Below the pieces are notes generated by a model. That model was not told where the DNA came from, searched no databases, and saw only the letters and a program-made list of their open reading frames with translations. Shown piece after piece: positions 3,940 to 13,127 of a stretch of 64,000 nucleotides of DNA. Both the position numbers and the translations under genes were made by a program. This stretch comes from Gekko japonicus (lineage: Eukaryota), in contig NW_015163612.1 in the NCBI RefSeq assembly GCF_001447785.1, positions 1,098,430 to 1,162,429 of the forward strand, read 5' to 3'. The stretch's first letter is position 1. The number at the start of each line of letters is the position of its first letter.

Positions 3940-4259
3940 TGTTGTGTTCTTACATAGACCATGCACGTGGTCGGGTCCGCACGTGGACACGCGAGTGGCC
4001 CAAGCTTCACTCTCAAGACAATAGACAGCACGGATCCTAAAACCCACCTATCAGGCAGCCAGGATCTGAGAGTTAACCTATGGGATTTGGGGTGCACTGT
4101 AAATAATCTCATCATGGGTGTGGGTGTGTGCTTGGGTGTGGTTTAGAATGGGGATTTAAGTAGACCTCCGGTCCTGCTCTCGTTGTCTGTATCCGAGCTG
4201 AATTACAATAAACTCATGAGCTGATTTCACTGCCTCGTATCCGAACCCAGTACATTATA
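3940..4259 (+). repeat. 5' LTR of Gypsy provirus
   Basis: Begins TGTTGTG, ends CATTATA; AATAAA at 4207-4212; 22 substitutions and no indels versus the 3' LTR by manual alignment (~93% identity). Confidence 0.95.
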
Positions 4260-4260
4260 G

Positions 4261-4278
4261 TGGCAATGAGGATGGGAT
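4261..4278 (+). promoter_or_regulatory. Primer binding site, tRNA-Ser(GCU) type
   Basis: TGGCAATGAGGATGGGAT versus TGGCGACGAGGATGGGAT, the complement of the vertebrate tRNA-Ser(GCU) 3' end; both mismatches are CpG-decay type; 1 nt after the LTR. Confidence 0.85.
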
Positions 4279-4380
4279 ACCGATGAACGATCCAGAAGCC
4301 TCCGACTCGAGCACCGCATCGCATCGCGACGAGACACCACCCCGCTGCTGGCCGCCGCACCACATATTGTTTCCCGAATC

Positions 4381-4981
4381 ATGGCTGCCACTCTGGGAAA
4401 CGTTCCAGGGTTCAATACTGCTCACCCTGAGACATGGGAAATGTGGATTGAGCGACTGGATTACTATGTCACCCTGAGACATGGGAAATGTGGATTGAGC
4501 GACTGGATTACTATGTCACCCTGAGACATGGGAAACGTGGATTGAGCGACTGGATTACTATGTCGACTTTCACAACATCACTGAGGAGGGGAAGAAGAAT
4601 TCCTTGATGTTCAGCTCATGTGGAATTGCTACCCTCTGGCTGTTGAAGAACTTATTGGCCCCTAAGACACCGAAGGAGGCCACCTATGCAGAGATGGTAA
4701 AGGCGCTCACAGACCACTTCGCACCACATCTGACAACAATGGCGAGGCATTTAGTCTTCTTTGCGCGCATCCAAAGCTCCAATGAAATGGCCACCAAATT
4801 CTTCGTTGGAGTGTGCCGAGGTGCCACCCACTGCGGGTTTCCCGAATTAGGGAATATGCTCATGAATCAGTTTGTCGTGGGTCTCAGGGAGCTGAAGCTT
4901 CATCATAAACTCGCCATCCAAGACCAACTGACCCTGGAAAAGGCCCTACAAGATGCCATGGCTTATGAGGATTTGCATTGA
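4381..4981 (+). pseudogene. Gypsy gag (frameshifted, C-terminally deleted)
   Basis: ATG 4381 gives MAATLGNVPGFNTAHPETWEMWIERLDYYV; continues after the triplication as ...KKNSLMFSSCG...CGFPELGNMLMNQFVVGL...LTLEKALQDAMAYE, a typical Gypsy capsid. Confidence 0.85.
4422..4562 (+). repeat. Tandem triplication of a 47-bp unit inside gag
   Basis: TCACCCTGAGACATGGGAAATGTGGATTGAGCGACTGGATTACTATG starts at 4422, 4469 and 4516; one substitution in copy 3. Confidence 0.97.
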
Positions 4982-5655
4982 GAACACCGCACCTTCCAGA
5001 AAAACCGAGTGGCCATCAAGGGGTGGGGCAAATTTAGGGTACAATACAAAGATTTCACAGGACAATTAGACTTGCTGGTGGTGGAACGGCAGCTTACTAG
5101 TTTACTGAGGCTGTCTTGGTTTGCGCCATTGGGGCACGGGGTGACGGGGGTTCATCAGGTATGGACTATGGACTTTAACTCAGTTTGTGATGCATTCCCG
5201 GCCGTCTTTGATGATATGCTCGGGTGCTACACTGGTCCCCTGGTCTCGCTGGACCTTGACCCCGCAGTACGGCCGGTCTGGATGAAGCCCCGGAGCACCC
5301 TGTTTGCCCTCAGGCCAAAAATTGATATTGAACTGGACCGCCTGGGGAGCCAGGGGGTCCTTGAACTTGTTCCACATGCCCGGTGGGAAACCCCCATAGT
5401 AACCCCGGTAAAACTGAATGGGGAAGTCCGCATTTGTGCTGACTACAAATGCGTGATTAACAAAGCCCTGCAGGACCACGCATATCCAATCCTGGTCATC
5501 AGCCATGTGCTGGCATCCCTGGCGGGGGCGAAAATTTTCAGTAAGCTGGACTTGGCCCAGGCTTACCAACAACTCTCAGTGGATGATGCCACCACGGAGG
5601 CACAAATAATAGTGATCCATAGGGGGGCTTTCTGGGTGAGAAGACTGCAGTTTGG

Positions 5656-7308
5656 TTTTTTTTAGGCCCCCCTAACAATAGCTTATATAAATGTTAATCT
5701 TAAATTGCTAGTATTACTTTGAATATAGTCGGTTATGCTAAATTTTTTATCTTTTTATCCAGTGATTTAACTGTTTAAGAGAACCCCCAGAGCATCCCAT
5801 AATAAAACTAAAGTTTTAAGGCACAATTCAGAGTCCTTCAGCCTTCATTTTGTCTTATCTTTTCTAATCCTCAATTTATATGTACGCTTGGGGGCAGCTG
5901 CCATTGGAAAGAGAGTCCTCGTTGGAAGACACCGAGTCCAATTCACCACTGGATTTGTTGTCATCTTCTTCCTTCTTGACCTCGTCTGTCTCTCCCAGCT
6001 GCACTCTCAAGAACTCATGTGCTTTGGAGACAGAGTCAATCTCTTCTTTTTTATCATGTAGTTTGAAAATGACATCTTCTGGAATGAACCATCTGTAGAC
6101 AATGCGGTTTTTTGTAGAAAAAGGATTAAGTCTTTATATTTCTTTCTCTTTTGCCTTATTTCAAATGGAATGTCTTTTAGAATCCTGATGGTATTGTCCC
6201 TGATTTTCAAGGGTGTTCCTGTAGTTGCTTTCAGGATAGAATCCCTCACATGTCATTTTGAGAATCTGGCCACTATTTCCCCAGGCAGATTATTCTTTTT
6301 GATGTACACGGAATAGGACGTATAGACCACATTTATTTCGCTTGCAAGATACTCTGCTTTCAAATCTGTAACTGGGGCTAATGCTTCACTCAGGAGTTGC
6401 TTTAGATTCTCACCTTTTAACCCCTTGAAACTGTAGGACCAGACTTGCTTTCTCCATTTGCAGCTGTAAAAGTTGTGATTCTTCCGAAGCTTGTTTCTTT
6501 TCCAGCTTTTGCACCTTTTTCTTGACTTTTTTAGTGTTGGCGTCCATTTCCTTCACCTTCTCAGCTGTTTGCTTCGTTATTTTTAAAGTCTCAGTCAGTT
6601 GGAGCTACTGAGTTGCAAGATTCTGGTTTAGAGTCGTCAGCTGTTGTTTGATGTTAGTCGCCTGGTCCAGCAGAGGGCGCAAGGAATCTGCCAACATTTT
6701 GGAGAACTCAGTGGCCTCTTTCGGTTGAGGCCTCATGGTCCCGGCTGGTTTCACTTTTGCTGGTTTATCTTTCTCTGCCCTCTTCCCCACCATCTTTATG
6801 GATTGTTTACTTTTATGAAAACTTGCTAAAGTCTCTGAAATACGGCCATATGCTTATCCGTGCTCTGGTAAGTCTCTCAAAATAGATTTCAACGCTTTTT
6901 CTTCTGCTCCCCCTTAGTATTTCGTTGTTTAGTTCATGCGCATGGGAGGGCCCCTCCCCCACTCTCTTTTTTCACCATTCCCAGGGGGTAGCTTTCTTTT
7001 TAAATTCTTGTATTCGCTTTAACCCGACTCACTGTTCATTGTTGGTCATACGACCTCGCTCGGCACACGTTCAAAATCCATACGGACACTCAGCAGCAGA
7101 ACTGTCGGAGTGGAGGAGCATCTCAATTCCCCAGCATCACGCTGGTGAAGAGGTCACCCTTCAAAAGCCCCATGGCTAGGAGCCTTTTGCCAAGGCTCCG
7201 GGGGGGGAGCGACCAGTCGCCCCCCTTCTTTCCACCTGTGCGCAGATCACATCCCCTGGAGGTCCGGGGGATGCATCCACCAGCATGTCGCCATAAACTG
7301 GAAGTCCA
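5656..7308 (-). mobile_element. L1-related non-LTR element with 5' UTR + ORF1 + short 3' region + A-tail and no ORF2 (half-L1/HAL1-like), nested in Gypsy RT
   Basis: Exact 17-bp TSD AGAAGACTGCAGTTTGG (5639-5655 / 7309-7325); T8 at 5656-5663; 5' end GGACTTCCAGTTTATGGCG (ETS/YY1-like L1 start); the host RT reading frame resumes exactly after the second TSD. Confidence 0.88.
5876..6793 (-). pseudogene. L1-type ORF1p (coiled coil + RRM + CTD), disrupted
   Basis: Manual translation across 2 stops and 2 frameshifts: MVGKRAEK...(heptad-rich)...LQMEKASLVLQFQGV/GENLKQLLSEALAP...NNLPGEIVARFSK*HVRDSILK...IRILKDIPFEIRQKRKKYKDL...YRWFIPE...DSVSKAHEFL plus acidic tail; resembles vertebrate L1 ORF1 (Transposase_22 family). 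Confidence 0.82.
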
Positions 7309-7541
7309 AGAAGACTGCAGTTTGGAGTCAGTGTGGCCCCAGGAATCTTTCAAAACCTGATGAATTGTCTCCTCAACGGTATCCCTGGATTCCAGCCCTT
7401 CTTTGATGATGTTTTAATCGCGGCTCCCATGGCTGAGACCTTCACTGAGCATCTGTGCGTTGTCCTCCAGTGCTTCAATGATGCTGGCCTGAAGGTAAAG
7501 TGAGAAAAATGTCTGCTGGGTGTCCCTCGAGTTGAGTTCCT

Positions 7542-7796
7542 AATAATAATAATATACTTTATTGTCATTGTACATAGTACAACGAAATTAAGGTGCAATC
7601 ATTCGGTGATCTACAAGCATACTCATATACACTCACACAACCATACTCATATACACTCACACAACCATTAGGGTTCACATTGCAACTTAACCACCAATGT
7701 CAACAAAACCACCAAATTCCAATTCATACAGCATTTAAAGCAATAATAGCTCTCGAATAAAAACTGTTTTTTAATCTGTTTGTCCTTGTTTTGATT
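7542..7796 (-). mobile_element. Rex1/Babar LINE 3' fragment nested in Gypsy RT
   Basis: Minus strand encodes IKTRTNRLKNSFYSRAIIALNAV* (Rex1-type C-terminal motif), then a 3' UTR ending TTTCGTTGTAC...ATGACAATAAA and (TAT)n; interrupts host ...RVEFL|GFVVD... Confidence 0.8.
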
Positions 7797-9939
7797 GGGA
7801 TTCGTGGTCGACGCACATGGCATTCATTCCACAGATGCGAAGATCTGCACCATTGTCCAAGCACCCACTCCATCATCTAAAGCCGAACTCCAGGCCTTCT
7901 TAGGCCTCTTGAACTTTTATCATTCCTTCCTCCCACGTAAGGCTGCCATGGCAGAACCTCTTCACCACCTCCTGGACAAGAACGCCCTGTGGGTCTGGGG
8001 GCCCTGGCACACCGCCATGTTCAGGGCCGTTTAAGGACTTGCTGGTTTCCAATGATGTCCTGGTGCATTTTGATGAGTCCCTCCCCGTCATCCTCGTCTA
8101 TGATGCCTCCGCATACGGGGTGGGGGTGGTCCTGGGTCACAGATTGCCGGTCAGCCGGGAGGTGCCAGTTGCTTATTATTCCCACACCCTATCTGCGATG
8201 GAGCATAATTACGCCCAGATAGACAAGGAAGCCTTCGCCATTGTGGCGGGGGTTAAAAAATTTCATGATTATTTGTATGGCTGGCCCTTCATGATTGTCA
8301 CAGATCACAAACCCCTCTTAGGTCTCCTGGCCCCAGACTGGCAAACCCCCCAGATGCTGTTGCCCTGGGTGCTCCAGTGGTTCATTTTTCTGGCCAGGTA
8401 CCAGTATGTCCTCCTCCACTGGCCCGGGAAAGCTATGAGCCACACAGACGCCCTGAGCTGCCTGCCATTGCCAGCCTGCAACCCCGATCCGGCCTTCTCG
8501 AGGACCTGCCCAACCAGCCCGTCCAGGTGGTTGAAGCCACCACACTGCTCATGATCGTATCCTCTCCCGGGTCCTGGACTGGGTGGGGAGGGGATGGCCC
8601 GCAGGCAGGTTGGGCCTGGAATTTGCTGCCCTCTCATCCCGCCGGGACAAGCTGTTGGCACACAAGGGGTGCCTGCTCTGGGGTAGCCAGGTGGTGGTAC
8701 CCTCACCCCTGTGCCAGCGTGTGCTCGCAGCTCTGCACGAGACCCACCTGGGAATCGTGCAGATGAAGGCTCTGGCCCTCAGCTACTTCTGGTGGCCAGG
8801 CATGGACAGGGAAATCAAGGATTGAGTGAAGCACTGCCAGACATGCCAGGAATCGCGGCCAGCACCTCCAGCAGCTCCGGTCTGGCCATGGGAATCGACA
8901 CACAAGCCGTGGGCCCAGTTGCTTGTGGACTTCGCGGGGCCCTTCCAAGGTCAAGTATTCTTCATTTTAGTAGACTCTTCCTCGAAATGGCTGGAGGTCA
9001 TTCCGGTGACTACCATGTTGTCCCGCACCACCATTCGTGCCATGTGGAAGATCTTCAGTACACACGGCATTCCGGACATGTTCATGTCCGACAATGGGAC
9101 CGCGTTCATGTCGGCTGAATTCCAAGACTTTGTGCGCTATTATGGAATTCAGCATGTCCGCTCATCCCCGTTCCACCCCGCGACCAACAGCCAGGCAGAA
9201 AGAATGTTGTGGACAACGAAAGAGTCCCTCCACCGGATCGTACAGGGGGAATGGGACCACCGGCTGGCAGCATTCCTTTTCAGCCAAAGGATGCCCCCTA
9301 CCTCTGCCACCAGTTGCAGCCCCGCGGAATTGTTGATGGGTAGGCGTCTCATGACCCAGCTGGACCGGCTGCACCCGGATCGGGCCCTGGAACATGGCCA
9401 GATGCAGGACAGCCAGAAAGCTCCCCAGGGGTTCATTCCAGGAGACTCAGTGTATGCCCAGAACTTCTCGCGTGGGCCAGCATAGATCCCAGAAAGGGTT
9501 GAGTGGGTGGCTGGGCCTCTGTCTTACGAGGTCTCAACGGGTGAGGGCCTAATCCTCCGATGGCACATCAACCAATTGAGATGACGGTTGCCGCCCACGG
9601 ACCAGGCCACAGCAGAGGAGAGCAAGGAAGAAGAGTATTTGGCCCCGGAATCCAGCAAAGCTGGTGAGAACCCTGCCTCCGGTCAAGCACAACCCGGGCC
9701 AAATGAACCCCCGCCTACAGGGGCCACAGGCGACAGCCCTCAGACATCAGAAGCACAAACCCCCAGTGGCACTCTGACACCAATGCAGCCGCCAGAGACT
9801 TCTACGGAATCTACAGAGTCGGCTGCAAGCCTGCCGGCTCCGGCGACTGAATTATGCCGCTCCATGAGGAAGCGGCGAAGGCCAGTTCACCTAAAAGACT
9901 TCGTGTGCTAGGGGGGAATTTGAACTATGGGGGGAGGGT

Positions 9940-10259
9940 TGTTGTGTTCTTACATAGACCACGAACATGGTCGGGTCCACACGTGGACACGTGAGTGGCC
10001 CAAGCTTCGCTTTCAAGACAATAGACAGCACGGATCCTAAAATGCACCTATCGAGCAGCCAGGATCCGAGAGTTAACCTATGGGATGTGGGGTGCACTGT
10101 AAATAATCCTATCACGGGTGTGGGTGTGTGCTTGGGTGTAGTTTAGAATGGGGATTTAAGCAGGCCTCTGGTCCTGCTCTCGTTGTCTGTATCCGAGCTG
10201 AATTACAATAAACTCATGAGCTGATTTCACTACCTCGTGTCCGAACCCAGTACATTATA
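9940..10259 (+). repeat. 3' LTR of Gypsy provirus
   Basis: Direct copy of 3940-4259, preceded by PPT GGGGGGAGGG (9929-9938) and followed by TSD CAATC. Confidence 0.95.
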
Positions 10260-11795: not shown

Positions 11796-12143
11796 GGAGA
11801 GCTGCAGTGGCTCAAGTGGTTAAGACGCTGAACTGCAGGCTGTGGAAGGTCAGTAGTTCAGCAGTTCGAGACCTGGGTGCTGCATGATGAAGTGAGCTCC
11901 CGTCTCTAGTTCCAGCTCCTGCCAACCTAGCAGTTTGAAAGCAGGAAATTGCAAGTAGATAAATAGGTACCACTTTGGTGGGAAGGTAACAGCGTTCCGT
12001 GTGCCTTGGTGTTTAGTCATGCCGGCCACATGACCACGGAAACGTCTTCGGACAGCGCTGGCTCTTCGGCTTTGAAATGGAGATGAGCACCGCAACCCTA
12101 GAGTCGGACTCGACTGGCTTTCGAGCAAGGGAACCTTTACCTT
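11796..12143 (+). mobile_element. Sauria SINE, full length
   Basis: tRNA-like head (GTGGCTCAAGTGGTTAAG), body matching the other copies, ACCTTT tail; TSD TAAC(A/C)ATCAATA. Confidence 0.9.
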
Positions 12144-13127
12144 TAACCATCAATATATCTTTAAAAATAGACAGAATAAGGCAGAGGCAGAGTAAGAGAG
12201 GGGTTTTTATCAGTGGTAGGATGACCTACCATTGCAGACACATAGTGGGAGTCAAAATGGTCCCTTGTCTCCCCAAAACTATCATGAGTGAGGATTGTGC
12301 AGGTGCCCTCACGATATCATCAAGGAAGCTCCCCAGCAACAGTATTACATTTATACATTAGTCCTGGACCTGCCAGAAGAAGGAATTGACTGAAGCTTCT
12401 CTTCAGCCAAGACAAAAGGCCCTGCAGATTTCCTTATGATAGGGCTGGCTTAGTGTCTGCGTTCAGCCACTGAGGACAAACTCTGTATCAGTCTATAATC
12501 AGTCGTTTCCCTGGAACAGTCATACAGGAGGACCCTGCAGACACTTTCATCCTGTCCCCAGCACTTTTGGGGTAGGCAACAGCCTATACATGTTTCTTCT
12601 GCCGGATGCTTCCTAGGAGCTACCAAGCATGAAGACTCTAGGGTGGTCACGGACTCCAATGCTTCCGTCAACATAATTGTTGCTGCCACCTGCCAGTCCA
12701 GGGAGTATAAGTATAGGGAGGGGTGAGGAGAAGGGCAGGGTGTGGAGAGAAGGAGATGAAGAAGAAGGGATTGATGTGCATATATGTGTGAGAAAGAGAA
12801 TGTGTGTAGCATGGTGTATGCGAGGCAGGGAGAGTGTGTATGTAATAGTTGCAGGAGTTCATGTGAGAGAATATGTATGCATGGAAGAGATGAATATGAG
12901 CATGAATGTGTCGAGGGGAATAGAGAGGGAGAAGAGCTTATCATGTAGTTAGTCCTTTACTGTGACCACTTATTGAGTATTGAGATAGTCCTATTTGAAC
13001 AATTGGTATTGAACCACAGTACCATTCATATAAACCCAGAATGTTTGAATTTCACTTTGTTTTCGGTTTCATAAAATGTCAACCATTATTGATGGATATT
13101 TAAGCAGACATGGAAGTATTTCAGAGA

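Follow-up and report, generated by a model that had tools for sequence, protein, structure and literature searches.

An L1-type insertion within a Gypsy retrotransposon

The window, the whole 64-kb stretch of gecko DNA analysed (64,000 nt), holds a decayed Gypsy LTR retrotransposon whose RT gene contains an L1-type insert in antisense orientation (Table 1). The Gypsy LTRs, at 3940 and 9940, are at least 320 bp long and 93% identical. The insert comprises 1653 bases enclosed by an exact 17-bp repeat that occurs twice in the 64-kb window (n = 2); one such pair is expected by chance 0.12 times in 64 kb. Part of the insert is contained in 20 of the 24 sequencing runs listed, all of which bear a single organism code, and four of the 24 (X1, X2, X3, and X21) were aligned to 5250–7500 at 80% likeness. 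Three of these four runs (X1, X2, and X3) contain other Gypsy copies with an empty site, in which 5638 is joined directly to 7309 and the 17 bases are single; the joint was not found in X21. RVT_1 matches flank the insert on both sides (left E 0.048; right E 1.5e-7). Gypsy copies with the 17 bases single, together with RVT_1 on both sides, exclude a chance origin of the repeat pair, and both ends of the insert are fixed because other Gypsy copies carry the 17 bases once. The original prediction of a minus-strand insert of 1653 bp between exact target-site duplications (TSDs) is thus confirmed, and the insert at 5656–7308 is real and well bounded.

The TSD is of the target-primed insertion type that marks the L1 clade. 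As had been noticed from the letters alone, the target is not TT/AAAA: the insertion site reads CT then CCAAAC, TT/AAAA being the mammalian consensus. A search of the 64-kb window by blastn and by motif found no second copy of the insert.

Table 1 Features of the insert and its host element in window coordinates.
Feature	Position	Strand	Basis or remarks
Host Gypsy LTR retrotransposon, decayed	3940..10259	+	LTRs, gag, RT, RNase H, integrase pieces
TSD, element 3' end	5639..5655	.	Exact repeat, 17 bp; empty site in other Gypsy copies
A8 tail	5656..5663	-	Sequence
9-nt G-rich segment (six G, then CCT)	5664..5672	-	Not common to bulk of family; loose ends at 5673 in X1, X2, X21; depth arithmetic
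Non-coding stretch after ORF1: inter-ORF spacer or 3' UTR	5673..5844	-	172 nt, 30% GC, 4–6 stops per frame; common to family (depth)
Decayed L1 ORF1, ~316 codons	5845..6793	-	Coiled coil, RRM, C-terminal domain, acidic then basic tail
5' UTR	6794..7308	-	515 nt, 50% GC, 20 CpG, GC-rich hairpins in first 200 nt
L1 5' terminal motif	7289..7307	-	Anolis clade-1 consensus-like, spacer shorter
TSD, element 5' end	7309..7325	.	Exact repeat, 17 bp

The reading frame and 5' region of the insert

ORF1 of the insert is dead, being broken by stops at 6607–6605 and 6255–6253 and by frameshifts near 6420, 6110, and 5902. It most likely terminates at the TGA at 5847–5845 after about 316 codons, since other copies are five bases longer at 5902. 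The stop at 6607 is private to the window copy (99.7% of X1 depth differs), and relatives also differ from it at the 6110 and 5902 frameshifts. Transposase_22, the domain by which the frame was to be verified, was not matched by any of the three ORF1 pieces scanned singly; the frame was identified through its homologues. A phmmer search with the middle piece returned 122 hits at E ≤ 0.001, two of them low-complexity noise; the best was P0001 (49%), against which the other two pieces reached 44% and 39%. Transposase_22 was matched at E ≤ 0.01 by 15 of the 30 hits scanned, while four fell above the cut-off. An alignment profile (A1; 18 rows, the three window pieces among them) matched human LINE-1 ORF1p 2ykp at E 8.5e-18. 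These homologues identify the frame as an L1 ORF1 of squamate type and point to a squamate host. Twenty hits were looked up, and the seven bearing organism names were all from squamates (Phrynocephalus, Gekko, Eublepharis, Varanus, Pantherophis, Ahaetulla, and Pseudonaja); two further named ORF1 homologues come from Anolis. An L1 ORF1 of about 300 codons, as first proposed, therefore stands as to its identity but not its state, with two stops, three frameshifts, and a slightly greater length.

The window ORF1 piece and P0029 fall within one 60-row clade (support 99) in a quick tree whose inner forks are weak. The tree was built on 102 columns and 102 of the 129 rows, leaving out short matches and two low-complexity proteins, and in it no starred clade of up to half the rows includes the window piece. 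No protein from the insert's own family was found in the protein collections searched, a result of little evidential weight. Three gene models among the homologues carry other names: P0009 (apolipoprotein A-IV-like), P0015 (PRDM9), and P0070 (UBE2E2) are or contain L1 ORF1 sequence, and ORF2 pieces also lie within the latter two.

The insert was said to have an L1-style 5' terminus, and this needs one correction, an extra T at 7308 between the TSD and the start of GGACTTCC. Compared by eye, the terminus resembles the lizard clade-1 L1 consensus with a shorter spacer, as far as the accessible parts of PMC5381506 and its supplement go; Anolis consensuses from the supplement were compared over 400 letters each. 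The proposed 5' UTR of some 515 nt with GC hairpins was recovered at that length, and folding of its first 209 nt gave a z of −2.7.

Abundance and diversity of relatives

Median depth over the insert exceeds that over the Gypsy flanks 24 times in X1 and 20 times in X2, bearing out the expectation that the insert has many relatives, at about 20 times the depth of its host family. Long contigs listed have depths of about 40–165, and depth in the DNA runs holds up toward the 5' end as far as 7226. Nominally these figures amount to a few thousand copies, but depth added up over contigs does not measure copy number and is inflated by overlapping short contigs; hundreds to thousands of copies is a fair estimate for this abundant family. 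Among the 40 sequence differences listed (1095 more were recorded), 28 fall in the insert, and at 27 of these 28 the window copy disagrees with more than 90% of X1 depth. Private mutations amount to at least 1.6%. The copy is old enough to have decayed, in agreement with the divergence of the LTRs.

Nine contigs in X3 have a different 5' UTR upstream of 6913 (median 115 loose letters), and relatives in X2 carry an additional segment of 38–40 nt at 7075–7078; together these variants indicate several subfamilies. In X21, an RNA run, 98 of the 6307 aligned reads are at least 99% alike to the window, and the reads are therefore uninformative on expression of this locus. No RNA run is on record as a carrier of the insert. 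Of the 21 bins between 5706 and 7301, 20 have more minus-strand than plus-strand first mates in X21 (1.27-fold), a bias that in a stranded library would be an antisense excess such as read-through of intronic copies gives. Twenty-four molecules in X21 start at 7028. Loci of relatives were not found in viral contigs, metagenome contigs, or prokaryote genomes, as expected for a reptile element.

The 3' end of the window copy and of its family

Relatives go on past 5673 where the window copy does not. Beyond this position 98 raw reads in X21 (agreement 0.96, median 38 loose letters) and 23 contigs in X2 (agreement 0.96) continue alike; 48 contigs in X1 also continue, with an agreement of just 0.59 that hints at mixed continuations. 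X3 has no continuation row at 5673 among the rows listed, and one X3 contig stops there. The family continuation, a 30-letter consensus, is neither an A-run nor the nine bases of the window. These loose-end results come from the 24 rows listed, with 2453 further rows behind them. Mean depth in the bin 5630–5705, compared with the next bin, is 366k versus 389k in X1 and 272k versus 291k in X2; this fits coverage starting at 5673 but is suggestive only, and X21 and X3 are uninformative in this respect.

Since the relatives share one sequence past 5673 and the window has nine unshared bases, the 3' end of the window copy differs from the main 3' end of the family. The original prediction took this end for that of a family, naming copies that continue beyond it as the first half of what would count against the idea, and relatives do pass 5673 with one shared sequence. 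A minority of the family may end as the window copy does. The roughly 200 nt of 3' sequence proposed earlier proves to be a short non-coding stretch, with 181 nt from the inferred TGA to the A tail, of which the last nine are foreign to the bulk of the family. An A8 tail with no AATAAA before it was described correctly: the last 680 nt contain none, the nearest lying 682 nt from the end. RNA ends in X21 do not accumulate near 5664.

In the excerpt of PMC5381506 all L1 families end in AATAAA then poly-A. The insert does not have this ending, and its nine bases are accordingly unlike a normal L1 terminus. They point to a jump, either an early template switch or a deletion, over plain premature polyadenylation. 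That an intact L1 RNA was simply polyadenylated early, or primed internally, in the spacer is very improbable. Around 25 potential premature signals are described in lizard L1 ORFs, and internal priming is described for the L1 machinery, with tailless copies in the anole (excerpts of PMC5322556). However, the family sequence offers neither an A-run nor the nine-nt segment past 5673, no signal hexamer lies upstream, and polyadenylation would not add nine foreign bases.

Just past the ORF1 stop, the bin 5782–5857 has the greatest depth of all in X1, X2, and X3 and so seems conserved across subfamilies, possibly as a functional RNA signal. A diverged variant leaves the alignment at 5818 (160 reads in X21).

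Does the family carry ORF2?

No endonuclease or RT sequence had been noticed in the copy, and the non-ORF1 frames tested indeed gave no Pfam, NCBIfam, or PDB match. No L1 ORF2 piece was found in the window among matches to 126 proteins, and Rfam returned 0 matches at E ≤ 1. The copy thus lacks the ORF2 with endonuclease and RT that defines an autonomous L1. In gene models P0070, P0121, and P0126, and by eye in P0029, a homologous ORF1 is linked with endonuclease sequence; in P0029 the ORF1 appears to run straight into the endonuclease without a spacer. In the insert's family at least 200 nt past ORF1 contain no recognisable start of ORF2, and the 172–176 nt of this stretch present in the window have four to six stops per frame.

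A decayed ORF2 start within this stretch was considered and is at most a lead. Pfam, NCBIfam, PDB, and P0029 (E 1.4) gave it no support, its spacing fits poorly, and overlaps of ATG and stop are common by chance. The comparison is a weak one, since the endonuclease-like tail of P0029 itself has no match in the same libraries. An ATG at 5848 overlaps the inferred ORF1 stop (5848–5845), its frame being shut after six codons; in some Anolis clade-1 L1s ORF1 and ORF2 likewise overlap briefly. One frame past ORF1 bears a loose likeness to an endonuclease N-terminal motif.

Origin of the copy

The insert is a dead ORF1-only copy from an abundant L1-type family. There is about an even chance that it arose once, by 3' shortening of an ordinary reptile L1 with both genes, and is not the type member of an ORF1-only family. 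On established L1 biology, an L1 ORF2 protein would have nicked the target and reverse-transcribed from an A-rich end. Reverse transcription may have started on that end with the nine adjacent bases and then jumped to 5673, everything between the spacer and the A-rich end being lost from the copy. Alternatively, the intervening segment could have been deleted in the donor or afterwards, which would give the same structure as a jump. Second-strand cleavage 17 bases away would have produced the TSD, and the copy would have decayed afterwards.

This shortened-copy explanation is favoured by the continuation that relatives share at 5673, the depth in X1 and X2, the lack of AATAAA near the tail, and the homologous ORF1s joined to endonuclease in the four gene models. 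The different 5' UTRs found among relatives are in keeping with an L1 lineage of long standing, and TSD-flanked L1 copies truncated at the 3' end are known, the human genome having 90 tailless versus 708 full-length copies in the excerpt of PMC5322556. Other observations weigh against it. ORF2 was not seen in the family, whose printed continuation is 30 letters. The element has a 5' end of lizard clade-1 type, yet at least 200 nt past ORF1, where Anolis clade-1 spacers measure −46 to 110 nt (accessible part of PMC5381506). P0029, apparently without a spacer, sits in the same 60-row clade of the quick tree. The family seems far more numerous than the 170 full-length L1s given for Anolis in all, which would suit a short element that is not autonomous. 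A cut falling just within the spacer of a 6-kb element is rare a priori, the 2453 loose-end rows beyond the 24 listed could include copies ending at 5664, and the lower agreement in X1 again hints at mixed continuations.

Several of these points suit a rival in which the whole family is an ORF2-less half-L1 of HAL1 kind, with its own ORF1, a borrowed ORF2, and a 3' UTR longer than that of the window copy; we regard this as rather unlikely, and equally that the window copy then lost part of that 3' UTR. Such a family would account for the high abundance with intact 5' ends (24 times in X1 and 20 times in X2, without a fall before 7226) and for the long stretch after ORF1 lacking an ORF2 start, where Anolis relatives have little or no spacer. 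The 30% GC of that stretch fits the 22–40% described for lizard clade-1 3' UTRs better than the 40–50% of clade-2 spacers, and a short deletion would be an easier accident than one of 4 kb. Long spacers are, however, described as common in L1s and called ancestral, and AT-rich long ones occur in fish and some mammals. Moreover, neither a 3' end nor a poly-A of the family was observed, contig depths added together do not give copy numbers, and HAL1 is reported from mammals only in the parts of PMC5753468, PMC5786205, and PMC5322556 consulted.

A rearranged master copy with exactly this end might instead have given rise to a small subfamily with ORF1 only, existing alongside a larger autonomous one. 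In that case neither the nine foreign bases nor the tail would call for a new accident, and the loose-end rows beyond those listed, with the X1 agreement of 0.59, leave room for it. We consider it improbable: no read, contig, or loose end among the rows listed carries this end, depth arithmetic in X1 and X2 leaves little room, no polyadenylation signal is present, and RNA ends do not pile up near 5664 in X21.

Taken more broadly, the proposition that a reptile L1 lineage rich in copies (hundreds to thousands) and divided into several subfamilies lost ORF2 and became a half-L1 parasite of autonomous L1s, its true end lying past 5673 or a subfamily ending here, falls somewhat short of an even chance. 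We place the one-off copy slightly ahead of the ORF1-only family as a matter of judgement. The earlier alternative of a one-off copy ending in the spacer has therefore gained ground, apart from its route by plain premature polyadenylation, whereas the retroposed ORF1-only insert first proposed keeps its L1 ORF1 and its lack of ORF2 in the copy and loses the family ending at this 3' end.

Relation to known elements

Anolis L1 clade 1 (L1_AC1-15; Boissinot and Sookdeo 2016, PMC5381506), as excerpted, shares with the insert a GACTTCC...ATGGCG-type 5' end, an ORF1 of some 1 kb that is AT-rich and encodes coiled coil, RRM, and C-terminal domain, and an A-rich sense strand. Its 5' UTRs are 792–1465 nt long compared with 515 nt here, where ORF1 measures about 950 nt, and the window copy differs further in lacking ORF2 and AATAAA. 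Mammalian HAL1 (Smit 1999; Bao and Jurka 2010; cited in the accessible parts of PMC5753468, PMC5786205, and PMC5322556) also has ORF1 only, an A tail, and TSDs, and must likewise obtain ORF2 from elsewhere. HAL1s are, however, mammalian multi-copy families with a common end, whereas the insert has a reptile host, an ORF1 of squamate type, and relatives the bulk of which continue at 5673. Because the bulk of the copies do not share its 3' end, the insert is not classed as a HAL1, although like HAL1 or any other RNA mobilised in trans this copy needed an outside ORF2; nor is it an intact L1. L1 insertions truncated at the 3' end or formed by template switching (excerpts of PMC5322556 and PMC4476161) resemble it in being 5'-complete, TSD-flanked, ended inside the source RNA, and off TT/AAAA. 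Those examples are mostly small RNAs or tailless, in contrast to the A8 tail and nine unexplained bases here. An early switch from a poly-A template has been proposed (PMC4476161), and template switching has been seen in Anolis (PMC5322556 and PMC4476161, same excerpts).

The literature listings and passages searched yielded no reptile ORF1-only L1 or HAL1. Read as a one-off event, the insert is a minor oddity, one element cleanly nested in another with an unusual 3' junction. Should the lineage indeed lack ORF2, the HAL1 way of life would have originated outside mammals as well, and ORF1-only L1 parasites would have arisen in reptiles too. Such a family would allow a test of whether HAL1 depends on the relaxed, poly-A-based selection of RNA known from mammalian L1, and of why retaining ORF1 is advantageous. 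It would add an example to a strategy already known (HAL1, HeT-A, Ag-Sponge; PMC5786205, in part) and not a new kind of element.

Other repeats near the insert

The same Gypsy pol gene contains a second, AT-rich insert of about 255 bp at 7541–7795. One of its ends carries a short repeat of TAA type, 24 bp are duplicated in tandem at 7613–7660, and a long TSD was not seen around it. It may be the 3' portion of a minus-strand LINE of L2 or Rex type. Two short repeats, at 2611–2922 and 11850–12149, have near-identical translations and may be of Sauria SINE type. At the start of the Gypsy gag region, 4422–4564 consists of a 47-bp unit repeated three times in tandem.
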